Assembly: GCA_964519305.1 (NCBI GenBank)
Contig: CAZFHY010000009.1
Coordinates: 75,130 to 139,129 of the forward strand
DNA: 64,000 nt
DNA from: Candidatus Undinarchaeota archaeon
Lineage (GTDB): Archaea; SpSt-1190; JASMDC01
Reading direction: 5' to 3'
The notes beneath the pieces were generated by a model. It saw only the letters and a program-made list of their open reading frames with translations. It was not told the DNA's origin and ran no database searches. Both the position numbers and the translations under genes were made by a program. Within the stretch, counting starts at the first letter, position 1; the number at the start of each line of letters is the position of its first letter. Below, one piece after another: positions 4,540-38,281 of this stretch.

Positions 4540-4746
4540 CCGCAGGTCCTCCGTCCTACTAGACTGCATTTGGAGGCAGATCACCCCTATTTAAGTCGTA
4601 TCTTGGGGCGCAGGTGTGCTGTTTTGTGTCACGTTCCGCTGCGGCTCTTCCATGTGCCGCAAGGGGTCCAGAATTAGGTCCGGCCACTGGCCGGTTCGGT
4701 CCCATCATTACCGAGGGCGGGAGGCCGTCCACCTTCAGGTGGAGCC

Positions 4747-4962
4747 TCACTCCCGCCGCTCGCGTGCCCTACGGTTTATCGTCGTGTTGTGGATACGGGT
4801 GAGGTATCCGGCAACCTTATTGCGCAGCTTGGATGTCGGGAAGGTAAGAAGTTCTTCCGCCATCTGCTTGTTCTTGTAGAAGTCACTTGAGAACACTTCA
4901 GGGTGGTCCTCATAGAGCTTACCTGCTACGCGCTTTACGAGCGTTGTGCGAATTCGTCCCAG
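4747..4962 (-). CDS. rps17e: 30S ribosomal protein S17e (CTG start; not in ORF track)
   Basis: Manual translation (M)GRIRTTLVKRVAGKLYEDHPEVFSSDFYKNK...SKLRNKVAGYLTR; RBS GGAGGTGA at 4968-4975. Confidence 0.93.
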   Translation of the reverse strand: MGRIRTTLVKRVAGKLYEDHPEVFSSDFYKNKQMAEELLTFPTSKLRNKVAGYLTRIHNTTINRRARERRE

Positions 4963-4981
4963 TCATTTCACCTCCTTTTCA

Positions 4982-5482
4982 TCATATCGTGTCCAGCTCG
5001 ATGAGCTGAGGCTCCATGGAGCCAAGGTCGACTATCATTACCGTAGGGACACCCGTGAGGTACGGGCAGGTCTCTCCGGGATTGACCAGCAGGGTGTCGT
5101 CCCGCTGGATGATCTCATGCTTGTGGGTGTGGCCGCGCACGACCAGGTCGTAGTTACCGGATGAGAGCACGGCGGATACAAGCTTGGGGCTCTCGCCGTG
5201 GAGCATGGCGACCCGGCGGTTGGCCAGCTCTAGGTCGGCGAACCTCCCGTGGAAGGTGGCGATCCCATCGAACTTCTTGGTGAGGAAGGGTATGTCGCCG
5301 TCGTTGTTCCCGAACACCGCGGCCATGGGCGGTTTGAGCTCCCTGAAGGCGCGTGCGGTGAACGGGGAGACGAGGTCACCGGCGTGGAGCACGTACTCCA
5401 CGTCCTCCCGGTTGAAGGTGGCCACAGCGGACTCGATGAAGTCGATGTTATCATGCGAGTCGGACATCACTCCGATCCTCAT
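4982..5482 (-). CDS. Metallophosphoesterase, YfcE/MJ0936 family
   Basis: SDSHDN, HAGD, GNND, HG, GHTH and NPG motifs. Confidence 0.92.
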   Translation of the reverse strand: MRIGVMSDSHDNIDFIESAVATFNREDVEYVLHAGDLVSPFTARAFRELKPPMAAVFGNNDGDIPFLTKKFDGIATFHGRFADLELANRRVAMLHGESPKLVSAVLSSGNYDLVVRGHTHKHEIIQRDDTLLVNPGETCPYLTGVPTVMIVDLGSMEPQLIELDTI

Positions 5483-17063: not shown

Positions 17064-18371
17064 CTATAACAGACCTGGCAGCCCGGTCACCAGCATCACG
17101 ACACCGATGAACAGGAAGAAGATGGTGGCGGCGATCTTGGTCCCTGCCACATGCTTCTTGAACAGGTCCTGCATGCTCTTTGACGTGGTCTCAAGGTAGG
17201 CGGCAACGAACACGATGACGAGCGGGGAGATGAACAGCAAGTTGTACAGGATCAGGTAGAACATGGCCTGTGAGCGCAGTTCGGGCACTCCGAGGATATA
17301 CACGATGGTCGGGAGATAGACCTGCCCCGTGCAGAGGAACTCGAAGAACGTGATGCCGAAGCCAACAAAGAAGGCGAAGGCCGCAAGGTACTCGGAGCGC
17401 GCTGCCGTCCGGACGATCGTATGGGTGGCCTTCTTGGCCCACTTGGGCATCTGAAGCGTCATCTCGTTCGGGTCACCGTCCCGGGCCCGGCAATAGTCGC
17501 GATAAGACAGGGCAGCGAACACGAGCGCTATGAATCCGGTGGCGGGATAGATAAGGGCCGACACAAGTGAGAAGCGCTCGACATAGACGAGCATACGCCT
17601 GAACCAGAGCCCCAGGAGAAGGTTGGCAGAGAAGACGCCAGCCGAGTAGAGGATTCCAATGAAGAGCACCTCCTTACCCTTCCGCTGGATGTAGGCAAGA
17701 TAGGATATGAAGAAGATGAGACCGGCGATAGCACAGGGATTGATGCTGTCGACAAGACCGGCTATGATCACAGCGGACGCAGAGAAGCTCGTGAAACGGT
17801 CGATGATTGAGTTACGTCCGGCCTCGACGCCTCCCGTATGGAAGACTTCGCACGAGCACGGGATCCCCTCTTCCGGTGCGGTGGATATGCTCTTCTCGAG
17901 CCCAGCGCGGACCTCCTCCTCACCTATGAAGTGGGTCTGGCCGACATAGAGGGCCGGGACGAAGGCACGTTTTTCCGGTGGGACGCCGAACTGTGCGTCC
18001 ATCGCCTCTTTGATCTCGGCGTTCTCAGGGAATAGGATGTTCATCTTATGGACATAGAGCCGAGGATGTCGGACCGCGAGCTCATCGAGGTAGGTCGACA
18101 CTCGTGCGCAAGAGCCACAGGTCGGAGAGTAGAAGTAGGCAACGCAAATGCCATTCGGTGGGCAGTCCATAGGCTCGTCGGCCACCAGCTCCTGTACAGT
18201 GGGAGTGGTGTCGGTCCCGCATGATTCGGCTACGATGGAGCATGCCTCGCCCTCAGCAGGCTCGGAAGTGCTCGTGCCAATATCTGAGGATGAGGCGATT
18301 GCCTCAAGACCCTGAGCGGCAGCTGCCGCGGGGACTAATATGAGAAGGAGCGCGATGATGAGCGCTCGCAC
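17064..18371 (-). CDS. Thioredoxin-fold + CcdA/DsbD-like transmembrane electron transporter fusion
   Basis: Signal peptide, YFYSPTCGSC, then GLVDSINPCA and FEFLCTGQVY in a multi-TM domain; GTG start inferred. Confidence 0.85.
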   Translation of the reverse strand: MRALIIALLLILVPAAAAAQGLEAIASSSDIGTSTSEPAEGEACSIVAESCGTDTTPTVQELVADEPMDCPPNGICVAYFYSPTCGSCARVSTYLDELAVRHPRLYVHKMNILFPENAEIKEAMDAQFGVPPEKRAFVPALYVGQTHFIGEEEVRAGLEKSISTAPEEGIPCSCEVFHTGGVEAGRNSIIDRFTSFSASAVIIAGLVDSINPCAIAGLIFFISYLAYIQRKGKEVLFIGILYSAGVFSANLLLGLWFRRMLVYVERFSLVSALIYPATGFIALVFAALSYRDYCRARDGDPNEMTLQMPKWAKKATHTIVRTAARSEYLAAFAFFVGFGITFFEFLCTGQVYLPTIVYILGVPELRSQAMFYLILYNLLFISPLVIVFVAAYLETTSKSMQDLFKKHVAGTKIAATIFFLFIGVVMLVTGLPGLL

Positions 18372-18378
18372 GACAGCG

Positions 18379-18915
18379 TCAGCAGCCCGCAATGCCCTCA
18401 CCGATCCCGCACACGATCCTGCGAAGCTCGTCGTAGGCAGTGAACCCGACCTTGACACGATCGCAGGCGAACACCAGAGTGGGTGTCGCCCGTATACTGT
18501 AGCCTCGGCTCATCCTCATGGCCTCGTCGAACGCTGTCTGTCCCACCTCGTCGACACACTTAGCACCGTCGTCATCCTTGAAGGCGATGCATTGCTTGTT
18601 GAGGTCGAATCCGTCACCGAGCTCCTCCTTCAGGCGCTCGAGGCCCGGTTTCGTCTTCACGCAAGCACCACACGATGGCGCATAGAAGTAGTCCAGGCGT
18701 ATCTTTCCCGGCTCAAGGCACTCGTCGATCCGGTCGAGGACCCGGAGCCCGAATCCATCCACAACGGGAGCACTGCCGCCACCAGGGCCCATAAGGAACA
18801 CACCTCCGACGACGACCGTCATGAACAGGCCGACCAGGAGGAGAGTGCGCGCGACAGGGATTTCGATATCCGTGTCCTTTCCCTTGTTCCGTTTCTTATG
18901 GGTCACTCTCCCCAT
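18379..18915 (-). CDS. Membrane-anchored thioredoxin-family protein
   Basis: TM helix, DYFYAPSCGAC, ATPTLVF cis-Pro loop; GGAGG RBS. Confidence 0.85.
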   Translation of the reverse strand: MGRVTHKKRNKGKDTDIEIPVARTLLLVGLFMTVVVGGVFLMGPGGGSAPVVDGFGLRVLDRIDECLEPGKIRLDYFYAPSCGACVKTKPGLERLKEELGDGFDLNKQCIAFKDDDGAKCVDEVGQTAFDEAMRMSRGYSIRATPTLVFACDRVKVGFTAYDELRRIVCGIGEGIAGC

Positions 18916-18940
18916 GGTCGTTGCCTCCAGTACGACTACT

Positions 18941-20818
18941 CTATGCAGCCTTGGCCAGCTCTTTATCGATGATGTCCTTGAAGACCGCGAACGGCTGGGC
19001 ACCGCTGATCGAGAATCCGTTCACGAAGAACGCCGGGGTTCCGGACACGCCGTACTCCTGACCATCATCCAGGTCCTTCTGGACCTCGTTGGCGTACTTG
19101 CCGCTGTCAAGGCACGTCTTGAACGCATCCATGTCGAGGCCGATGTCCTTGGCGAACTGCTCGAGCCCTGCTGCGTTTATGCCTGCTTGGTTCTCATAGA
19201 GGGCGTCATGGTACTCCCAGAACTTGCCCTGCTCCTCCGCACAGTGACTGGCCTCTGAGGCCTTCCGGGCGAAGGGGTGGAGCTGGTCGAGCGGGAAGTC
19301 GCGGTAGACGAAGCGCACCTTGTCACCGTACTCCTCGAGTATCTGCTTGATCGTGGGCTCGGCGCGCGAGCAGAAGGGGCACTGGTAATCTGAGAACTCG
19401 ATGATGGTCACCGGTGCGTCCTCAGGACCCAGGGCCGGATCGTCGTCCACGCCCGGCGGCTGCAGGTACTTGCCGGCACCGACCGCACCGGGGCTGACTA
19501 GATATTGATCGCCCTTCTGGATCAGCACTTGGGCGACCTTATCGTAGTTACCCGCCTGTAGCACGCTCGAATCGAATATGTACGCAGGTACTGCCTTGAT
19601 ATCCAGGTCCTCTATCATCTTCTTCCCCTCTGCAGAGGAGATATCTACATTGGTGACCTGGACCGTGGGGAACAGTTGCGTGCGGAAGATACCGATGAGC
19701 TCGGAAGGATCACAGGCATCACAGGCCTCGTCGTTCAGGACCGTGAGCTTCACGACCGGATCGTTGTCGCTGGGCCGCTCGCCGGTGAGTATCAACTCGA
19801 TGACCTCCTCGAAGGCCGGGTAGGGCTGTGCTCCGGAGATTGTCTCCTCCATGAGTCGTCCGTTCGCGTCCGTCCCCTGGATAATGAAGCCCGGCGTACC
19901 GGTGATGCCCTTGGCCTGACCTTCGGCCATGTCGTCCTTGACCTTCTGTGCCTTCTCATCCGAGTCCAGACAGTTATCGAAGGTCGCTGTGTCGAGGCCC
20001 AGGTTCTTAGCGTACCCCTTGAGTGAGGGGACAGTTAGAGCGTTCTGGTTTTCGAAGAGCATGTCATGGTACTCCCAGAACTTGCCCTGGTCACGAGCAC
20101 ATTCCGATGCTTCTGCGGCCTTCTGAGCGTTCTCGTGGAAGCCCAGCGGGAAGTGCTTGAAGATTATATTGACCTTATCCCCGTAGGTGGCCTTGATCTG
20201 TTCCATAATAGGAACGGCCCTCGAACAGAACGGGCACTGGAAGTCGCTGTACTCCAGGATCGTGATCTCTGCATCCGTCGCCCCTCCGCTTGGGCGTTGA
20301 GTGGCTGTAGGGGCCTTCGTCGGGGCCGCCGTGGGCGCTGCTGTCGGTTTAGCTGTCACCTTCGGGGTGCTATCCGTACCGGTCTCCTTCTGGATGATCG
20401 TGTCGACCGCTGCTCCTTGGACGCCCATGAGCTCTAGACTGGCCTTGACGTCCGCTGCCGCAACACCACGTGCGAGCTGGTACTGCACGAAGGCCTCGAC
20501 GTTCTTTGCAGGGATCCCTGCAGAGGTTTGAGTTGTGCCGGTGGCACCGATCCGTATGCTGCCCATGGACAGTCCCACCGCAGCGATCACCATCACGGCG
20601 GCCAGCACCATCGCAGCGACCATCCAGGCGTTCGTTCCGTTCTCTGCGTTATCCAAGCGCTCCTCGACCTCATCGAGTTCATCCGCTAGTTCTGTGAACC
20701 GACGGTTCATCTCGACGATACCGTCGTCCACTTCATCGAGACGCTCTTTGACGAGCTTGAGGGATACTCCTGATGTTCTCGCTTTCACCGGCCTTGCAGC
20801 CTTCTTCTTCTCTACCAT
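18941..20818 (-). CDS. Multi-domain DsbA/DsbG-family oxidoreductase (two CPFC domains plus a central CxxC domain)
   Basis: EYSDFQCPFC and EFSDYQCPFC, two GTP.F...ISGAQP motifs, central CDAC; N-terminal coiled coil, TM helix and Thr/Pro linker. Confidence 0.92.
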   Translation of the reverse strand: MVEKKKAARPVKARTSGVSLKLVKERLDEVDDGIVEMNRRFTELADELDEVEERLDNAENGTNAWMVAAMVLAAVMVIAAVGLSMGSIRIGATGTTQTSAGIPAKNVEAFVQYQLARGVAAADVKASLELMGVQGAAVDTIIQKETGTDSTPKVTAKPTAAPTAAPTKAPTATQRPSGGATDAEITILEYSDFQCPFCSRAVPIMEQIKATYGDKVNIIFKHFPLGFHENAQKAAEASECARDQGKFWEYHDMLFENQNALTVPSLKGYAKNLGLDTATFDNCLDSDEKAQKVKDDMAEGQAKGITGTPGFIIQGTDANGRLMEETISGAQPYPAFEEVIELILTGERPSDNDPVVKLTVLNDEACDACDPSELIGIFRTQLFPTVQVTNVDISSAEGKKMIEDLDIKAVPAYIFDSSVLQAGNYDKVAQVLIQKGDQYLVSPGAVGAGKYLQPPGVDDDPALGPEDAPVTIIEFSDYQCPFCSRAEPTIKQILEEYGDKVRFVYRDFPLDQLHPFARKASEASHCAEEQGKFWEYHDALYENQAGINAAGLEQFAKDIGLDMDAFKTCLDSGKYANEVQKDLDDGQEYGVSGTPAFFVNGFSISGAQPFAVFKDIIDKELAKAA

Positions 20819-20897
20819 TGATCATTCACCTTGTAACCGGGGCAACTCACGGAGCCCTTCCACCAATAGAATATGAAACCCTTTATAATTGGGGTGG

Positions 20898-20911
20898 TGA
20901 AACCAGTTTCA
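20898..20911. promoter_or_regulatory. Palindromic operator TGAAAC-CA-GTTTCA (copy 1)
   Basis: Lies in the divergent DsbA/regulator promoter next to TTTATAAT; identical copy at 21569. Confidence 0.7.
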
Positions 20912-20981
20912 AACGGACCAATTCGAAGCGTTTAATCAAATCCGAAAGATGGTTAAACCCCTCGTGTCCTAGCGTGGAACG

Positions 20982-21548
20982 ATGGACATCGGACGGCTTC
21001 TGTTCCGCCTTGGCGTCATCCTCCTCATAGTATCGTCCATCAACATCGTCCTTCTCAAGAACTTCACCGACATGGTACTCGAGAGCCGGAAGGAGGCGTG
21101 CGCGCTGGCCTGCGCAGCTGGGACCTGCCCGTTTGAAGAGACGGGAGATACCACACTCTCCCCTGCAGGCATCTCCCGACGCATACTCGCTTGCCAGCAT
21201 CCCGACCATGATCTGCGCACCCCTATAGAAACATACGTCGGTATCGCCATCGCGTGCATCACCGCCCTCGTTGGTGTCATGATGATCATGACGTCCCGCC
21301 AGCTGGGTACCGAGAGCATTGACGTGCGTAAGAAGATGGAACATGTCCTCGAAACACTCAAGGGCGAGGAGCGGGAAGTATATCGGTTCGTCACCGATGC
21401 CGACGGCTCGATCATGCAGAGCGACATCGTCGATAAGAGCAGTCTCTCAAAGGTGAAGGTGACCCGCATCCTCGACAAGCTCGAGGGCAAGGGTCTCGTA
21501 GAACGGCGCAGGCGGGGCATGGGGAACATCGTCGTGCTCAAGCACTGA
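20982..21548 (+). CDS. Membrane-anchored winged-HTH regulator (2 TM, Cys-rich loop; COG2512-like)
   Basis: TM-CALACAAGTCP..CQH-TM, then L...E..VY......G.I.QSDIV....LSKVKVTRILDKLE.KGLVERRRRGM.N. Confidence 0.85.
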   Translation: MDIGRLLFRLGVILLIVSSINIVLLKNFTDMVLESRKEACALACAAGTCPFEETGDTTLSPAGISRRILACQHPDHDLRTPIETYVGIAIACITALVGVMMIMTSRQLGTESIDVRKKMEHVLETLKGEEREVYRFVTDADGSIMQSDIVDKSSLSKVKVTRILDKLEGKGLVERRRRGMGNIVVLKH

Positions 21549-21568
21549 ACTGCCCTTCTTGCCCTTTT

Positions 21569-21582
21569 TGAAACCAGTTTCA
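21569..21582. promoter_or_regulatory. Palindromic operator TGAAAC-CA-GTTTCA (copy 2)
   Basis: Just upstream of the TTCTTAAG TATA-like element of the ABC operon. Confidence 0.7.
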
Positions 21583-21629
21583 CGCCCGAGTTCTTAAGGT
21601 GTTTCAGGTCAATCTATCCTTGAACGGAC

Positions 21630-22793
21630 ATGGACATACTCGGAATCGCACTCCGGAACCTCACCCGTAGACGACTGCGCACGGTGCTGCTCATCCTGGG
21701 CATCGCCGTCAGCTGTGCATCAGTGATAACCATGATCTCTATCACCTCTTCCATGGAGAAGAAAGTGAACCGTGAGCTTGAGACCTTCGGTGCCAACATT
21801 GTCGTGGTCCCCACAAGCCGCACCTTGGACCTGAGGTTCGGTGACCTGGACGTGGGTGGATTGTCATTTGGCGAACGTGATATCGACGCGACGGAGTTCG
21901 CTAACATATGGAATATAGAGGACAGCGGCAGCCTCGCACATGTGGCCCCTAAGGTGTACGGTGCTGTCACTTGGTCCAACGGCGGTGAGGGTGCGGTCAC
22001 TCTCGCAGGTATCGATATTGAGCAAGAGCCCCAAGTGAAGCGATGGTGGCAGGTCGACGGTCGATATCCGGCGTCAGAGAACGAGGTGCTCCTGGGTGCC
22101 GACGTCGCCGCGGCCAGCGGTGCTGCCATTGGTGATACCGTAGAGCTGGACGGGCGGGAGTTCGTGATAATAGGTGTGCTCCAGCCCACAGGTTCGGTGG
22201 ACGACGCGATGGTATACATCGAGCTGAGCACTGCGCAGACGATGCTTGGTAAAGAGGGCCGATACTCCATGGTGGACATCCGCGCGTGGTGCCACCTGTG
22301 TCCCGTGGAGGAGATGGTACGACAGATCATGGAGGCCGTACCCGGGGTTCGGGCCACACCGGTCAAGCAGGTGGCCATGGCCGAGATGGCTGTTCTGGAT
22401 AGCGTCCGTCGGTTCTCCACCTACATATCGGCAATCATCATCCTCCTCAGCATGCTCGGCCTCGGAGGGCTCATCCTCTCATCGGTCTCCGAGCGCACAC
22501 GCGAGCTAGGCATCCTCATGGCCCTAGGATTCAAGGAGCTACAGGTGGCCAGGCTCGTCATCACGGAGAACGCGCTCATAGGTGTCATTGGCGGTGCATC
22601 CGGGTTCGTGCTCGGGGCCGCGCTTACCGCCGTCATAGGTCCTGCGATTGCCGGTGACGCGATCGTCGCCACCGGTGTACGGTTCCTCCCCGCATCAATA
22701 GGCCTAGCGCTTGTGGTGACGCTTATGTCGTCCCTCTACCCGGCCCACCGCGCATCCCGGCTCCACCCAGCGGAGGCGCTCAGGTCGTTGTAA
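21630..22793 (+). CDS. ABC transporter permease, MacB/FtsX family, with extracytoplasmic CHLCP motif
   Basis: LRNL.RR.LRT.L..LGI, SV.ERTRELGIL.ALG, SLYPA.RASRL.PAEALR. Confidence 0.92.
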   Translation: MDILGIALRNLTRRRLRTVLLILGIAVSCASVITMISITSSMEKKVNRELETFGANIVVVPTSRTLDLRFGDLDVGGLSFGERDIDATEFANIWNIEDSGSLAHVAPKVYGAVTWSNGGEGAVTLAGIDIEQEPQVKRWWQVDGRYPASENEVLLGADVAAASGAAIGDTVELDGREFVIIGVLQPTGSVDDAMVYIELSTAQTMLGKEGRYSMVDIRAWCHLCPVEEMVRQIMEAVPGVRATPVKQVAMAEMAVLDSVRRFSTYISAIIILLSMLGLGGLILSSVSERTRELGILMALGFKELQVARLVITENALIGVIGGASGFVLGAALTAVIGPAIAGDAIVATGVRFLPASIGLALVVTLMSSLYPAHRASRLHPAEALRSL

Positions 22794-22816
22794 GATATCA
22801 TGGAATGGTGATAAGA

Positions 22817-23482
22817 ATGGCTTTTATTGAACTGGACGGTGTTCACAAGGAGTTCACGACCGGTGTGACGGTTGTAGCGCTACAGGATATAGAGTTCTCG
22901 GTGAAGGCGGGCGAGTTCGTCGCCATCATGGGCCCCAGCGGTAGTGGAAAGAGCACCATGCTCAACATCGTGGGAGGTCTCGACCGTCCCGATAGAGGTC
23001 GCGTCAAGGTGGATGATATGGATATCTACGACCTTCCAGGGACCAAGGTCGCCGACTACCGACGGGAGTACGTGGGTTTCATCTTCCAGCAGTTCCATCT
23101 TGTACCTACGCTCACCGCAGCAGAGAACGTGGCCGTCCCTCTGATGCTCGCGGGCCTGTCCTCAACCGAGCAGACTGTCCGGGCCGAGCGTGCGCTTACC
23201 TGGGTCGGTCTCAAGGACAAGGGTGACCGACTCCCCAACCAGCTCTCCGGCGGCGAACAGCAGCGTGTGGCCATCGCCCGGGCAACGGTGAACGAACCGG
23301 CTATCGTGCTGGCCGACGAGCCCACGGGGAACCTCGATTCCGCCACTGGTACCGAGATCATGGATATCCTATCCGAACTGAACGAGCGGGGCACCACAGT
23401 CCTGCTAGTCACCCACGACAAACAACTCGCCGAGATGGCAGACAGGATCATCACCATCAAGGACGGTGTCTCTCATGAGTAG
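22817..23482 (+). CDS. ABC transporter ATP-binding protein (LolD/MacB-type)
   Basis: GPSGSGKST, LSGGEQQRVAIARA, LADEPTGNLD, VTHD. Confidence 0.95.
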   Translation: MAFIELDGVHKEFTTGVTVVALQDIEFSVKAGEFVAIMGPSGSGKSTMLNIVGGLDRPDRGRVKVDDMDIYDLPGTKVADYRREYVGFIFQQFHLVPTLTAAENVAVPLMLAGLSSTEQTVRAERALTWVGLKDKGDRLPNQLSGGEQQRVAIARATVNEPAIVLADEPTGNLDSATGTEIMDILSELNERGTTVLLVTHDKQLAEMADRIITIKDGVSHE

Positions 23483-24077
23483 ACGACGATCGAGATCCAG
23501 CGAGGACACCCTCGAACGAAAGCGCCGGCTGGTCACAGGAGAACAGCCACGCAGACCTCGATATTCTAACTGGCTCGCCCCCGGGCTGCTGCTCTTGGTG
23601 GTGCTGGCCGTGGCCAGTGTATCCCTGAGAGGTACCGGGACGGACCCTGTCCAACCGGCATCCAAGGTACCGATCACTCTCAAGACCTCCAGTATTCCGA
23701 CAACCGAGAGCACCTCTCCGGTCGGGACATCGCCCTCATCTGTGCTTGACGGTCCTCCTGCGATCGAGCAGCCCACTGTGAGCGCAACGATGGAACCGGC
23801 CACACCGGTCCCGACAGAACGTACGCCCGAGCCGGTCGCTACTAATCAGAGAGTGCTCATCGCCATCCAAGGCATGACCTGTGGCGGATGTCAGGCAGGT
23901 GTCACCAGGGGCCTCTATGCAACCCCTGGTGTCGAGGAGGCAGACGTGTCCTTCCGGAAGGGACAGGCGGTAGTAGTGTACGACCCCGCGGTCATCTCAC
24001 CGGAGGGGCTCGTTGACGCCATCCATGCCATGGGTTCCAAGTATTCCGCCAGGGTTATGGAAGAGGATCCGGCCTAG
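23475..24077 (+). CDS. Membrane-tethered heavy-metal-associated (HMA) domain protein
   Basis: TM helix, Pro/Thr linker, GMTCGGC. Confidence 0.88.
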   Translation: MSRRRSRSSEDTLERKRRLVTGEQPRRPRYSNWLAPGLLLLVVLAVASVSLRGTGTDPVQPASKVPITLKTSSIPTTESTSPVGTSPSSVLDGPPAIEQPTVSATMEPATPVPTERTPEPVATNQRVLIAIQGMTCGGCQAGVTRGLYATPGVEEADVSFRKGQAVVVYDPAVISPEGLVDAIHAMGSKYSARVMEEDPA

Positions 24078-24628
24078 GCACACGCCGCCAGCCCCGGCTC
24101 GTAACCGCACACGATGCCCTTGAGCTGAGTGTAGGCAGGGATACCCACCTGCATCCGGTGACAGTTGAACACCAGCGTCGGAGTGGCGCGAACGCGGTAC
24201 TCCCTGCCCTTGGCGGTCGCTTCCTGAAAGCCTTCTTCGCCTATCTCTTCGGGGCACAGGACAGCGTCCTCCCCGTGGATTCGGATGCAGCGCTTGGCAA
24301 GGGTGATCGTATCGCCGAACTCAGCCTCAAGTCGGTCGATGGTGGGCTTGGCATTGATACAGGCAGGACAGGTCGGACTGTAGAAGTAGTCCACCTGGAC
24401 CGTACCCGGGACCGTGCAGCCTTCCTGGCCTGCCACGATCTCGAGGCCATGCTCGTCTTTTTCAGGGGCCGGTCCTCCGCCACCACCGGGGCCTGCCATG
24501 AGCAGGAGAGCAGCGAGCACACCACCCATCACGACAGCGAGCACAACCGTGAGGCTCTCACCTCCGCGGGCTGTAGTAGGCCTAGGTGGTTCTGGTACGT
24601 CCTCGATGTCGTCAGGTGGCGTTACCAT
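24074..24628 (-). CDS. Membrane-anchored thioredoxin-family protein, paralog of 18379-18915
   Basis: DYFYSPTCPAC, RATPTLVF, IVCG; start 24628 or 24652. Confidence 0.85.
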   Translation of the reverse strand: MVTPPDDIEDVPEPPRPTTARGGESLTVVLAVVMGGVLAALLLMAGPGGGGGPAPEKDEHGLEIVAGQEGCTVPGTVQVDYFYSPTCPACINAKPTIDRLEAEFGDTITLAKRCIRIHGEDAVLCPEEIGEEGFQEATAKGREYRVRATPTLVFNCHRMQVGIPAYTQLKGIVCGYEPGLAACA

Positions 24629-24690
24629 GGAGCTCACGCCGGTAAAGGACATCTGGCCTTAAAAGTCGATGCCCCACAGGTCACGATCGA

Positions 24691-24894
24691 TTACTCTACC
24701 TCGTACCCGGCCTCGACGATAGCTTTCTTCATCGTCGTATCGTCAACGGCCTCGGGATCGTACTTGACCTTGGCGGCGCCGATCACGACGTCCACATCGT
24801 CCACGCCCTCGAGCTCCGTCAGTGCCCGCCGGACGTGCATCACACAGTGGCTGCAGCTCATGCCACCTATCTTGATCTCTTTCTCTTCCTTCAT
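24691..24894 (-). CDS. copZ: Copper chaperone CopZ-like HMA protein
   Basis: GMSCSHC, AI.EAGY; GAGGTGA RBS. Confidence 0.9.
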   Translation of the reverse strand: MKEEKEIKIGGMSCSHCVMHVRRALTELEGVDDVDVVIGAAKVKYDPEAVDDTTMKKAIVEAGYEVE

Positions 24895-24925: not shown

Positions 24926-25681
24926 TCAAATACCTTCGCCCTGGAAGTCACGCTCAATCCGGTCGAGCTCGCTGTGGCTACCGTTATCGGTCCTGCACAC
25001 GGCTTTAGCGACGGGCGGCTCACTGTTCCCGTTCTTGGATAGGGTGTGCTCCATTGCTTGGAAGCGGCTCTCAAGGATACCTATCTCGTGACAGAGCACT
25101 TTCACGGCGTCCGCGATAGGATCGGGGAGGTTCCCGTGGTCCAGGTCACTGGCGCGCTTCGGACCATTGCTCACGATACGCCCCGGGACGCCTACGACCG
25201 TGCTCCCGGGAGGTACGTCCTTGATGACCACCGAACCCGCGCCGATGCGGGCATCGTCACCCACGGTAATGGCGCCGAGCACGGTCGCACCAGTACCGAT
25301 CACCACATGGTTGCCGATCGTGGGATGGCGTTTCTTTTTCTGAAGGCTCGTTCCACCGAGGACCGCACCCTTGTACATGAGCACGTCATCGCCGATCTCC
25401 GAGGTCTCTCCGATAACGACGCCCATCCCATGGTCGATGAAGAAACGGCGGCCGATGGTGGCCCCGGGATGTATCTCGATGCCCGTCAGGAACCTCCCGA
25501 TATGGGAGATGAACCGGGGGAGCACCACCCAGCCCCGCGTCCACAACACATGGACGAATCGGTGGATCCAGAGCGCGTGAAGACCAGGATAGCATGTGAC
25601 TACCTCCAACATGTTCCTTGCCGCAGGGTCCTCCCTGATGACGGTGTCCACGTCCTCGCGCAGGGTCTGGATGATGCTCAT
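24926..25681 (-). CDS. cysE: Serine O-acetyltransferase
   Basis: [46 protein letters not shown]. Confidence 0.96.
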
Positions 25682-25685
25682 TTCC

Positions 25686-26618
25686 CTACACCTCGATGTT
25701 CTCGAAGAGCCAGCCTGAAAGGTATCTCTCTCCCGTGTCTGGAAGTACGACCACGATGAGCTTGTCCTTGCTGGATGGTCGCTTCGCGACCTCCAGAGCA
25801 GCGGCCATGGCGGCCCCCGATGAGATCCCGACGAGCATCCCCTCCTTCTTCGCGAGCGCTTGGGCGGTGGCCCGTGCGTCCTCGTCGGCCACCTTGACTA
25901 CCTCGTCGATTATGTCCGTATTGAGCACCCTGGGCACGAAACCGGCCCCGATACCCTGGATCTTGTGAGGACCAGGACTACCTCCTGACAGAATGGGGGA
26001 TGCCTCCGGCTCTACAGCGATCGCCTGGAAGGATGGCTTCCGGGCCTTGATGGCCTCTGCGATACCTGTGATGGTACCGCCTGTACCAACGCCGGAAATG
26101 AGGATGTCCACCTCACCATCGGTGTCCCGCCATATCTCCTCGGCCGTCGTCCTGCGGTGGATGTCCGGATTAGCCGGGTTCTCGAACTGCTGCGGCATGA
26201 ACGACCCGGGAGTCTCTTTCACGAGCTCCTCGGCCTTTTCCACGGCACCCTTCATCCCACCTGATCCGGGCGTGAGCACGAGTTCGGCACCGAGTATCTT
26301 GAGGATCTTACGCCGCTCCATGCTCATAGTGTCCGGCATGGTTAGCACGAGCTTGTAGCCACGTGCCGCCGCCACGAACGCCAGCGCGATACCAGTGTTC
26401 CCGGAGGTAGGTTCGATGAGGGTCGTCCCCTCCTTGATGAGCCCTAGAGTCTCGGCCTTATCGATCATCGCTGAACCGATGCGGTCCTTGACACTGAATA
26501 GGGGATTTCTCGATTCTACCTTCGCGACCACTTTTCCTGGAAGTCCTTCTGCAAGTCGGTTGATACGCACGAGCGGCGTTCCACCGACCAGTCTCGTCAT
26601 GTCCTTTGCGATATTCAT
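25686..26618 (-). CDS. cysK: Cysteine synthase A
   Basis: [52 protein letters not shown]. Confidence 0.97.
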
Positions 26619-37081: not shown

Positions 37082-38281
37082 TCACTGCGTAGCGAGCTGA
37101 TTGCCGCAGGAGGGGCAAACCGCCGCTCCCTGCTCGACAGCCCCACCGCAGTAGGGGCAGGCCAGGGCTGCAACGGGTGCAGCGGGAGCGGCAGCTTCGG
37201 CCGGTGCTACTGCTGCGGGCGGTGCTGCTGCGTACGGTGACGGTTGGGCAGCTTCCGTCGGGGCGGCTGCCGTCTCGGGGTAAGCCTGGGGGTAAGGTGA
37301 GGCTTCCTGAGCGTAACCGTAGTTGTAGCTGGCGGCGTAGTAGCCACCGTAGTCGGACACGGTGGATGGATGGGCCGCGCCCTCCTGCTCCTTGACGACA
37401 CCGCTCCGGCGAGCGAGGAAGAGGAGGATAGCACCGATACCGGCGGCGATGTACACAAGCGTCTCGATGATCTCGCGATAGTAGATCAGCGTGTTCATGA
37501 ATCCCTTTGGCCTTTCACCGCTCTCCTCGGGTCCCACGCAGAAGAAACGCTCAGTGTCGCAGGTCTCGCCCTGCTTGCACATCGCGGTCGTGGTGCAGCA
37601 GACGTTGCCCGCCATGCAGCACACGTCGTTGCAGTTGTTGGTATCACACTCTGCGTCGGCAGCGCAGGCCTCGCCCACCTCCTTCTTGATCGAGGCGACC
37701 ACTTTCTCCGCTTCGGTCTTTGCCTCCATGGCCAGCTTGAAGGCGTTGGCGGTGTTCCCGGCGGACAGTTCGGTCCGGGCCGTCTCGAGCTTGGTCTTGG
37801 CCGCGGATGCGTCCGCCTCCTTCCCCTCTGCCGTGGTTATGAGCCCGGCCGCCGCGTCTATCTCCTTCTGGACATCCTCGCTGGTCACCTGATCCTCGGC
37901 CGCGTCCGCCACGCAGTAGAACCGCTCAGTATCGCACCTCTGGCCCTCATCGCACTCGGCGTTCGACTTGCAGCATGCTTTCCCCTTGATGCAGCAGACG
38001 CCGTTCCGGCAGTTGCCGGTGGTGCAGTCATCGGCGTCATCGCAGCTCCCGCCCGCACTGGCATCCTCCCCGCCCAGTCCGCTGAGGTCGCCGATGTCTC
38101 CCAGGCCCCCTAGGTCGCCCACGTCACCGGCATCACCGGGAACGCCCGCGGGAGCGCCACCCGGGATCTTGAACGCTCCAGCTAGCACAGGTCCTGCAAA
38201 GGCGAGGCATATGAGGGCTACTGCGAGCAGGCGGGTCCGGGGGACAGCGGGCACCATTGGTAGGTGTGTGACCGTGTTCAT
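37082..38281 (-). CDS. Single-pass Cys-rich surface protein with C-terminal double zinc ribbon (short paralog of 34078-37020)
   Basis: Signal peptide, G/D-rich linker, two (G/N)NC...CC..G..CC...CDTERF(Y/F)C modules, TM, DYGGY, CPYCG...CPSCG. Confidence 0.85.
   Translation of the reverse strand: MNTVTHLPMVPAVPRTRLLAVALICLAFAGPVLAGAFKIPGGAPAGVPGDAGDVGDLGGLGDIGDLSGLGGEDASAGGSCDDADDCTTGNCRNGVCCIKGKACCKSNAECDEGQRCDTERFYCVADAAEDQVTSEDVQKEIDAAAGLITTAEGKEADASAAKTKLETARTELSAGNTANAFKLAMEAKTEAEKVVASIKKEVGEACAADAECDTNNCNDVCCMAGNVCCTTTAMCKQGETCDTERFFCVGPEESGERPKGFMNTLIYYREIIETLVYIAAGIGAILLFLARRSGVVKEQEGAAHPSTVSDYGGYYAASYNYGYAQEASPYPQAYPETAAAPTEAAQPSPYAAAPPAAVAPAEAAAPAAPVAALACPYCGGAVEQGAAVCPSCGNQLATQ

Follow-up and report, generated by a model that had tools for sequence, protein, structure and literature searches.

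The bacterial one-component regulators ToxR and CadC carry an N-terminal OmpR-type winged helix-turn-helix (wHTH) domain, a single transmembrane (TM) segment and a folded periplasmic domain, and their periplasmic cysteines matter for activity. CusS and CopS are periplasmic copper sensors of the two-component type, which answer copper beyond the cytoplasmic membrane by inducing the copper defence of the envelope and depend on a histidine kinase and a response regulator. Envelope copper and redox homeostasis are linked by the bacterial Scs systems (ScsB/ScsC/ScsD), as reported in PMC10907172. Among archaea, ArnR and ArnR1 of Sulfolobus acidocaldarius are membrane-bound one-component regulators of archaellum and pili genes with an N-terminal HTH, a HAMP and a cytoplasmic sensing domain, and two C-terminal TM helices (PMC6396743); they are the only membrane-bound archaeal transcription factors that our literature search turned up. 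CopR of Pyrococcus furiosus (PF0739) is described in PMC7830388 as soluble, with the HTH at the N-terminus and a TRASH (plus His-rich) metal domain at the C-terminus, as forming Lrp-like octamers and as sensing cytoplasmic copper. This characterised copper regulator is cytoplasmic, and metal and envelope-stress sensing is largely unknown in archaea, especially in the host-dependent DPANN. Here we analyse a locus in a 64,000-nucleotide stretch of DNA (the window) from a Candidatus Undinarchaeota archaeon (assembly GCA_964519305.1, contig CAZFHY010000009.1, positions 75,130 to 139,129 of the forward strand), in which the gene of a small membrane protein with a C-terminal wHTH domain lies between two identical palindromes.

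We consider it probable that this protein is a membrane-embedded homodimeric one-component sensor-regulator of the promoters that bear the palindrome, and that it responds to a Cu(I)-type signal at the outer face of the membrane. From its sequence, it would work like ToxR/CadC, ArnR/ArnR1 and CusRS and belong to none of them, because its domain order, domain types and sensor differ.

Twin palindromes and composite promoters

The regulator open reading frame (ORF) is placed between two exact copies of a 14-nt palindrome, TGAAACCAGTTTCA, at 20898-20911 and 21569-21582, as the preliminary description of this DNA had claimed. Allowing one mismatch, TGAAAC-N2-GTTTCA is expected 0.06 times in the window, and none of 100 shuffled sequences reached two matches. 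Each copy opens a composite promoter of fixed order, in which the palindrome is followed after 8 nt by a TATA box and, 2 nt further on, by a third half-site GTTTC(A). Site 1, read on the minus strand, consists of the palindrome, CCACCCCA, ATTATAAA, GG and GTTTCA; site 2 of the palindrome, CGCCCGAG, TTCTTAAG, GT and GTTTCA; and a third site on contig C17 of the same genome of the palindrome, CCGTCCTG, TTTTTAAG, CT and GTTTCT. The two central bases are CA in the window operators, and TA is usual in the family.

From their orientation and architecture, site 1 would belong to the divergent DsbA operon, which has a Shine-Dalgarno-like GGTGA box ahead of its ATG at 20818, and site 2 to the ATP-binding cassette (ABC) transporter operon that begins with the ATG at 21630. 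The earlier assignment of the palindromes to the promoters of these two operons is borne out by the TATA boxes and third half-sites, which face each operon. The TTAAAC box before the regulator gene, centred about 27 nt upstream of the ATG, suggests by the usual geometry of archaeal promoters that the regulator mRNA is leaderless, and a run of five T at 21565-21569, just before operator 2, may terminate its transcript. A scan for bacterial sigma-70 promoters and terminators returned counts at chance and is not applicable to an archaeon.

The regulator family and its operator across archaea

Relatives of the regulator comprised 579 proteins at E ≤ 1e-3, mostly of 150-175 aa and from metagenome-assembled genomes of DPANN and methanogens; those with a name are annotated as 'uncharacterized membrane protein' or 'MarR family'. 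We confirmed 423 family loci in contigs of a one-genome-per-species collection. The hosts are mostly DPANN and include Aenigmatarchaeota, Woesearchaeota, Nanoarchaeota, Pacearchaeota, Micrarchaeota, Altiarchaeota, Methanosarcinales, Methanofastidiosum, Thermococci and Methanospirillum.

Two sets of family loci were picked by protein similarity alone, namely 80 genome loci (set 1; 669,261 nt) and 80 independent metagenome loci (set 2; 492,388 nt). The core pattern GAAAC-N2-GTTTC had 75 matches in 68/80 loci of set 1, where six control patterns had 0-1, and 56 matches in 55/80 loci of set 2, where all six controls had none and the composite form was present in 44 loci. The scan of the genome and of homologous loci that the preliminary description proposed thus found the motif near orthologous regulators, and not the absence that it had named as the refuting outcome. 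In set 1 the operator lies between -10 and +150 nt from the regulator stop in 46/80 loci, and in 14/80 the stop codon TGA forms its first three bases. Taken together, 104 oriented sites yield the consensus TGAAACTAGTTTCA, 9 nt, tATAaG, n, t, GTTTCa, in which the outer T (97 sites) and the outer A (102 sites) lay outside the search pattern. In three other whole genomes, GAAACTAGTTTC is confined to the regulator locus. Within the window's own class the regulator is encoded in 7/17 genomes and the motif accompanies it in 6/7, the exception being a genome that is 72% complete; in two class genomes without the regulator, the 12-mer occurs only in a GC-rich context lacking a TATA box.

At five loci (L046, L057, L061, L068 and L085), a second operator overlaps the regulator ATG, so that the operator encodes the first codons of the protein, which suggests autoregulation in this subgroup.

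Genes behind the operators

Pfam was run on 150 of the 157 ORFs that make up the first three reading frames behind the operators of 59 loci. The matches included HMA chaperones, HMA-DsbD_2 fusions (often with cupredoxin), E1-E2 ATPases with HMA, and Thioredoxin_4/DsbA proteins, and further FtrD-like proteins, AhpC-type redoxins with DsbD_TM, DUF411, PCYCGC and YHS; many ORFs had no match. The search was widened with profiles built from the examples found, applied to all frames within 4 kb behind the 104 oriented sites and with the seeds counted. Profile matches were most frequent for HMA (62/104 sites), followed by P1B ATPases (46), a MerT-like membrane family (41), DsbD_2 (22), a 'YG-x-ELGVSYDDV' family (18), DsbA (13) and FtrD-like proteins (10), and 86/104 sites had at least one category. 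All six of the ATPases examined exceeded the cut-off of the copper subfamily TIGR01511 (544-670 bits vs 397). In the membrane family with Cys-Cys…G-L-I-P-H-x-G-C, one member weakly resembles MerTP (E 6e-6).

The claim that a membrane sensor-regulator with an identifiable operator controls an envelope thiol/metal regulon is therefore well supported by comparative evidence, through the composite promoter, its conservation in a sister genome, and the recurrence of the cassette in both locus sets (68/80 and 55/80) before genes of HMA proteins, Cu-type ATPases, DsbD_2 and DsbA.

Some recurrent operator-linked families have no Pfam or NCBIfam name: the 'YG-x-ELGVSYDDV' proteins are membrane-anchored and about 210 aa long, a group of small proteins carries 'SSYEEMMQAHHG' and ends in GGC, and the weakly MerT-like Cys-Cys…G-L-I-P-H-x-G-C membrane family (41/104 sites) is the third such case.

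The regulator protein and its predicted dimer

A hydropathy scan of the 188-aa regulator detected two hydrophobic segments, residues 6-24 (TM1) and 86-104 (TM2). The loop between them reads, from the translation, C40-x3-C44-x4-C49-P50 and then C71-Q-H73, and the chain continues with TM2, a linker helix and a C-terminal wHTH domain (129-186). The C-terminus matches Pfam DUF7343 (E 9.3e-12, 45.1 bits, cut-off 27.6) and, over residues 142-177 only, MarR PF01047 (E 5.9e-8, 32.9 bits, cut-off 24.6). The earlier reading of a two-TM protein with a cysteine loop and a cytoplasmic wHTH domain between the operators agrees with these results. No match to HAMP was found in Pfam, and none to TRASH at E ≤ 0.01.

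In a 24-row alignment of the family, C40 is invariant, C49-P50 is nearly invariant, and so are the recognition helix and wing (…KVKVTRILDKLE-x-KG…ERRRRGM-x-N…). At least two TM segments were found in 71/80 locus-encoded members and the pattern C-x(1-12)-C-[PSA] in 67/80. In the 62 members for which exactly two TM segments were counted, Lys and Arg together have a density of 0.25 in the N-tail and 0.275 after TM2 but of 0.05 in the loop, which fits a topology with the N-terminus inside, the loop outside and the wHTH domain inside. The window regulator belongs to a clade (P0001-P0006; identity 62-81% for P0002-P0006) with a loop insertion of about 35 aa that holds the extra Cys and His; the loop of the window subtype has four Cys and one His vs two Cys in most members. 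Among the 80 metagenome loci this long-loop subtype was absent, the best identity being 33-46% over long matches.

The AlphaFold2 (AF2) model of the regulator has a mean predicted local distance difference test (pLDDT) value of 80.5, with helices at residues 3-45 and 82-125 that cross the membrane and reach beyond it, a minimal wHTH at 129-186 and a loop of low confidence. The nearest sequence relative in the PDB by profile search is the MarR protein 8xt8 (E 1.7e-4). With Foldseek, no PDB entry matched at E ≤ 1e-3; the top rows (MftR 8ylg, CodY, SqrR and CadC) align with the wHTH part only, at a query TM-score (TMq) of about 0.3. Neither search of the PDB found a solved relative that extends beyond the wHTH domain.

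The model of two copies obtained a median score of 0.44 over three runs (0.42-0.48), compared with 0.00 for the best of three controls. This score was reached by 20/30 proteins solved as same-chain pairs and by 1/23 solved as single chains, counts that are only a rough guide here because an alignment of our own was used as input. At least 70% of the contacts agree between the runs and the pLDDT at the partner is at least 70, and the confident contacts involve TM1/TM2 and residues 35-49, i.e., the cysteine segment. The model supports a dimer without proving it.

MarR proteins are soluble dimers in which N- and C-terminal helices flank the wHTH and form both the dimer and the ligand pocket. We rejected membership of the MarR family in this strict sense: the wHTH of the regulator is terminal and preceded by the TM helices, the MarR dimerisation helices are lacking, and the modelled contacts are made by TM1/TM2 and residues 35-49.

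Sites elsewhere in the genome and in a sister genome

The window's genome (G000) has 3.63 Mb, and the only close locus found was in a genome of the same genus (G001). TGAAAC-N2-GTTTCA occurs four times in G000 and its reversed control not at all. GTTTCA-N18-GTTTC has four matches, three of which are the composite promoters, and the scrambled control has none. A relaxed scan for composites (up to two mismatches, AT-rich box, third half-site) returned the three exact sites and one poor two-mismatch match on C29. With one mismatch allowed, the palindrome alone had eight matches: the four exact copies, three from a different, longer repeat on C6 and one on C3.

Behind the third composite promoter (G000:C17:37504; promoter and ORF together 37504-37740) stands an ORF of 51 aa that contains five cysteines but no signal peptide, and for which Pfam gave only noise-level matches (NifZ, 0.012). 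The fourth exact palindrome (G000:C2:61480-61493) is intergenic: the HAD-like and M14-peptidase genes on either side of it converge and leave a gap of 39 nt. In G001 the regulator is 77% identical and both palindromes are present; the alignments show that palindromes, TATA boxes and third half-sites are kept, and that the 7-8-nt spacers between them differ. The C17-type promoter and its small ORF are also kept in G001.

Several side observations were made in these genomes. About 160 nt past the 51-aa ORF on C17 lies a Cys-rich AbrB/MazE-like gene, followed by a Cys-rich S-adenosylmethionine (SAM) methyltransferase gene. On C19 (locus L008, 1468-2950), the gene of a paralogous 186-aa two-TM wHTH protein without loop cysteines diverges from an ORF for a secreted, Cys-rich protein of 253 aa. 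The region between the two contains a TATA box with a direct GTTTCA half-site on each side (L008, 2125-2152), and a near-identical site is found at G000:C1:405850; by its sequence, the paralogue looks like a second membrane regulator that uses the same half-site in a different arrangement. The repeat on C6 (7751, 7800 and 9542) is a longer palindrome with a TGAAATATGTTTCA core and conserved flanks, present in three copies within 2 kb and unrelated to the operator. Genomes of the window's genus have 3.6-3.8 Mb, compared with 0.6-1.2 Mb in 15 other genomes placed in the class, and a contamination of 4.3-6%; this points either to a lineage of unusual genome size within its class or to an error of placement or binning.

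Genes of the window

The features of the locus are listed in Table 1.

Table 1. Genes, operators and promoter elements around the regulator gene (positions in the window)
Feature	Position	Strand	Remarks
Trx/Grx-like (thioredoxin/glutaredoxin-like) domain (C-G-S-C) with multi-pass membrane domain	17064-18458	-	Sub-threshold Glutaredoxin match
Membrane-anchored Trx-like protein, C-G-A-C	18379-19002	-	Sub-threshold Thioredoxin_2/Thioredoxin matches
Double DsbA-like protein (Thioredoxin_4), membrane-anchored, first gene of operon A	18941-20818	-	Pfam/NCBIfam
DsbA-operon promoter	20874-20889	-	TATA 20882-20889, third half-site GTTTCA 20874-20879; promoter role inferred
Operator 1, exact 14-nt palindrome	20898-20911	-	Read toward DsbA operon
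Putative TATA of the regulator's own promoter	20953-20958	+	TTAAAC box; block conserved in G001
Sensor-regulator gene	20982-21548	+	188 aa; Pfam, hydropathy scan, AF2 model, family alignment, charge pattern
Operator 2, exact 14-nt palindrome	21569-21582	+	20 nt past regulator stop
ABC-operon promoter	21591-21606	+	TATA 21591-21598, third half-site GTTTCA 21601-21606; fits family consensus of 104 sites
MacB-type permease, C-H-L-C-P	21630-22793	+	Pfam MacB_PCD PF12704 6.6e-24, FtsX PF02687 7.9e-17
ABC ATPase, MacB/LolD/FtsE type	22805-23482	+	Pfam ABC_tran PF00005 1.3e-37; NCBIfam
TM-anchored HMA protein, G-M-T-C-G-G-C	23466-24077	+	Pfam HMA 4.5e-14
Second membrane Trx-like protein	24074-24652	-	Pfam/NCBIfam; neighbour
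CopZ	24691-24894	-	Pfam/NCBIfam; neighbour

The DsbA part of the divergent operon A, described earlier as a DsbA/thioredoxin/CcdA operon, is confirmed: the double DsbA-like protein matches Thioredoxin_4 in two stretches (E 2.3e-62) and DSBA (E 1.4e-48), and in NCBIfam the Rcas_1661-family thioredoxin-like lipoproteins (236.5 bits vs a cut-off of 190). The Trx-like protein at 18379-19002 probably starts at an internal ATG near 18915 and is by eye a paralogue of the one at 24074-24652. The CcdA label of the last gene, 17064-18458, is weak. Its membrane domain had no Pfam match at E ≤ 1, its full-length match to the NCBIfam ArsG permease (E 0.0015) lies far below the cut-off, and its language-model look-alikes, the CcdA/DsbD_TM/SfLAP clusters at 0.91-0.93, are leads only. 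The translation shows N-P-C and F-L-C-T-G motifs of the kind expected of such domains and places one Cys in each of two TM helices, and the protein can be considered a candidate CcdA/DsbD-like electron conduit.

In the other operon, the extracytoplasmic domain of the permease contains C221-x2-C224-P225, of which both cysteines and the proline are invariant in the G001 orthologue (57% identity). The HMA domain is probably outside the cell, as it follows a TM helix and a Pro/Thr-rich linker. In G001 (locus positions 4586-5164) the third gene of the ABC operon looks FtrD-like by eye and stands where the window has the TM-HMA protein, so that one metal-related accessory gene seems to have taken the place of another in close relatives.

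The second thioredoxin and CopZ do converge on the locus, as described previously, but the sequence does not support counting them in the regulon: no palindrome was found at up to two mismatches, and their upstream sequences show no half-sites. On the minus strand between 24074 and 26618, a putative cysK (25686-26618), a putative cysE (24926-25681), CopZ and the second Trx-like gene stand head to tail with gaps of 4-38 nt. They may form a cysteine-synthesis/copper-chaperone/thioredoxin unit of their own without an operator, the names cysK and cysE being taken from the translations.

Proposed mechanism and alternative explanations

We propose the following course of events. In the regulator dimer, the two TM helices of each chain would make a four-helix bundle, with the Cys-rich loops at the dimer interface on the outer face and the wHTH domains in the cytoplasm. 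The dimer would bind TGAAAC-N2-GTTTCA where it abuts the factor B recognition element (BRE) and TATA box of the target, with the third GTTTCA half-site just past the TATA box, and would control three promoters in this genome: those of the DsbA/Trx/CcdA-like operon, of the MacB-type ABC/HMA operon and of the gene for the small Cys-rich protein on C17. A thiophilic metal, with Cu(I) the likeliest, would bind the cysteines of the outer face; a close rival at this step is that copper oxidises them. The signal would shift the TM helices and alter the seat of the wHTH pair on the palindrome and the TATA-proximal half-site. The apo form would occlude the TATA-binding protein (TBP), transcription factor B (TFB) and RNA polymerase (RNAP), and the signal would de-repress. 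In archaea, binding upstream of the BRE is the position of an activator and binding just downstream of the TATA box that of a repressor; we favour de-repression over activation, though only slightly.

The most likely signal is a thiophilic metal, Cu(I) first, judging from the family regulon and from the commonest loop subtype, which contains Cys, His, Met and Trp; the last three bind Cu(I) in CusF. The loop subtype co-varies with the target type: the 47 sites with C-x-H/E-G-x2-C-P-M-W loops have HMA at 41, an ATPase at 30 and the 'YGxELGVSYDDV' family at none, and the ten with C-x-L-P-x3-C-P loops have HMA at one and that family at nine. We regard this as a pattern and not as a test, and as the related genomes are not independent, the counts overstate the evidence.

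Further points weigh against a copper sensor acting through this cassette. The window loop is an atypical subtype, and P0006, which is 62% identical, lacks C44 and C49. A regular expression for C...C-[PSA] did not match 13/80 members, in some cases because the start codon is wrongly placed. A structural disulfide, and not a sensor, could also be what the loop cysteines make. Downstream of 18/104 composite sites none of the eight gene categories was found, although 4/18 had less than 1 kb of sequence. The orphan palindrome on C2 has neither a TATA box nor a third half-site, and G001 keeps it with changed flanks. Finally, the sole CopA-type gene of the genome is on C28 and has no operator. The regulon of the genus thus contains no Cu ATPase, and the link to copper therefore rests on the wider family, on the HMA or FtrD-like gene and on the logic of Scs systems.

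With CopA outside the regulon, a thiol or disulfide signal is therefore a serious rival at this locus. The same cassette would then read the thiol-disulfide state of the envelope, with oxidation or reduction of the loop cysteines setting its activity, possibly by feedback exchange with the DsbA- and Trx-like proteins under its control. Of three target units in this genome, two are thiol-redox or Cys-rich, namely the DsbA/Trx/CcdA-like operon and the 51-aa ORF, the window loop is richer in cysteines than that of most members, and subfamilies with other loops drive DsbA and AhpC-type redoxins. The commonest targets of the family are nevertheless HMA proteins and Cu-type ATPases, and the ABC operon ends in an HMA protein here and in an FtrD-like protein in G001, so that we hold a thiol signal to be unlikely overall while keeping it well ahead of the remaining alternatives. 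Judging from the bacterial Scs system (PMC10907172), copper and disulfide stress of the envelope are mechanistically linked, so that a metal and a thiol signal are hard to tell apart from sequence.

A sensor-regulator that reads the signal itself is also to be compared with one whose TM helices serve only as an anchor or dock, while the MacB-type ABC transporter or another membrane partner senses and relays within the membrane. Bce-type ABC transporters report to kinases that have no sensor domain of their own. The regulator gene directly precedes the MacB-type permease/ATPase pair, the outer domain of the permease conserves C-x2-C-P, and other membrane-tethered wHTH genes adjoin MacB/FtsX operons in this genome. 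Against this, no match to FtsX, MacB_PCD or ABC_tran was found among the 150 ORFs behind operators in the 59 other loci, and the family therefore works without a transporter of this kind. Nearly all members keep the pair of loop cysteines, the loop subtype goes with the target type, and the dimer model puts the Cys segment in the interface. We regard sensing by a partner as improbable.

Very improbable is a palindrome that is not the regulator's operator and is bound by another factor, or acts as an RNA or termination element travelling with the gene: a terminator-like place is suggested by its overlap with the regulator stop in 14/80 loci, by the T-run that precedes it here and by the orphan copy between convergent genes, but its spacing to the TATA box and third half-site is fixed, site 1 points away from the regulator, Rfam gave no match at E ≤ 0.1, the intergenic RNAs fold no better than shuffles (z +1.61, -0.87 and +0.30), a stem of 5-6 bp with a 2-nt loop makes no stable hairpin, the composite motif is found together with the regulator gene and is missing from class-mates that lack this gene, and a near-invariant recognition helix is matched by a near-invariant operator.

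Returning to the copper-responsive sensor-regulator, we put forward a broader hypothesis, plausible to us but somewhat doubtful as a whole. The family may be a self-contained transmembrane switch present in many archaeal phyla, in which a homodimer of 160-190-aa chains reads Cu(I) or another soft metal, or thiol oxidation, at an outer-face Cys cluster of the TM interface and passes it on by helix movement to the wHTH domains on a promoter-fused 14-nt palindrome, with no kinase, proteolysis or partner. The loop subtypes would have diversified for different envelope signals, and in this lineage of large genomes the switch would have given up copper efflux for the control of an Scs-like thiol-repair operon, of a MacB-type exporter and of a Cys-rich mini-protein, with twin operators around its own gene.

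Our literature search, with subscription journals outside its scope, found no paper on the Cys-loop membrane wHTH family or its operator. New here are the long-loop four-Cys subtype, the twin operators around the regulator gene, the regulon without CopA and the third promoter with the orphan site; the replication in a second set of loci, the co-variation of loop and target and the dimer model are also new. The family would be a minimal sensor, comprising one small protein, a sharp operator fused to the core promoter and a short target list, in hundreds of genomes. It would give a handle on how signals cross the membrane to the archaeal basal transcription machinery, and the operator would serve as a marker to annotate metal and thiol defence operons, including those of unknown families, in uncultured archaea. 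The window, from an uncultured marine archaeon, holds a divergent form: two operators surround the gene, the loop has four Cys, and the predicted regulon consists of genes for envelope thiol redox and ABC export in place of CopA.

Comparison with known systems

The regulator resembles ArnR and ArnR1 in being archaeal, in having a DNA-binding domain and two TM helices in one chain, and in its presumed direct action on promoters without a kinase. Its domain order is the reverse of theirs (TM-loop-TM, then wHTH), no HAMP match was found, an outward Cys loop is the candidate sensor, and metal and thiol genes are its targets. With ToxR and CadC it would share the one-component transfer of an extracytoplasmic signal across the membrane to a promoter-binding wHTH domain; it differs from them in having two TM segments, a loop of 25-60 aa, no separate outer domain and a C-terminal wHTH of the MarR/DUF7343 type.

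The family resembles CopR, an archaeal regulator that is encoded beside copper-export genes and binds next to the BRE and TATA box of cop promoters (PMC7830388), in its gene neighbourhood and in the presumed place of binding. In contrast to CopR, the regulator has no TRASH match, is predicted to be membrane-embedded, is modelled as a dimer and is associated with a sharp 14-nt palindrome. Operon A resembles an Scs system in its parts list: a DsbA-like oxidoreductase, a Trx-like protein with a membrane anchor, and a Trx-like domain joined to a candidate DsbD/CcdA-like membrane domain. The matches behind the Trx-like parts and the membrane domain are, however, sub-threshold, an archaeon has no periplasm bounded by an outer membrane, and the regulator is an entirely different one. 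From CusS and CopS the regulator would differ in that sensing and DNA binding share one chain of 160-190 aa.

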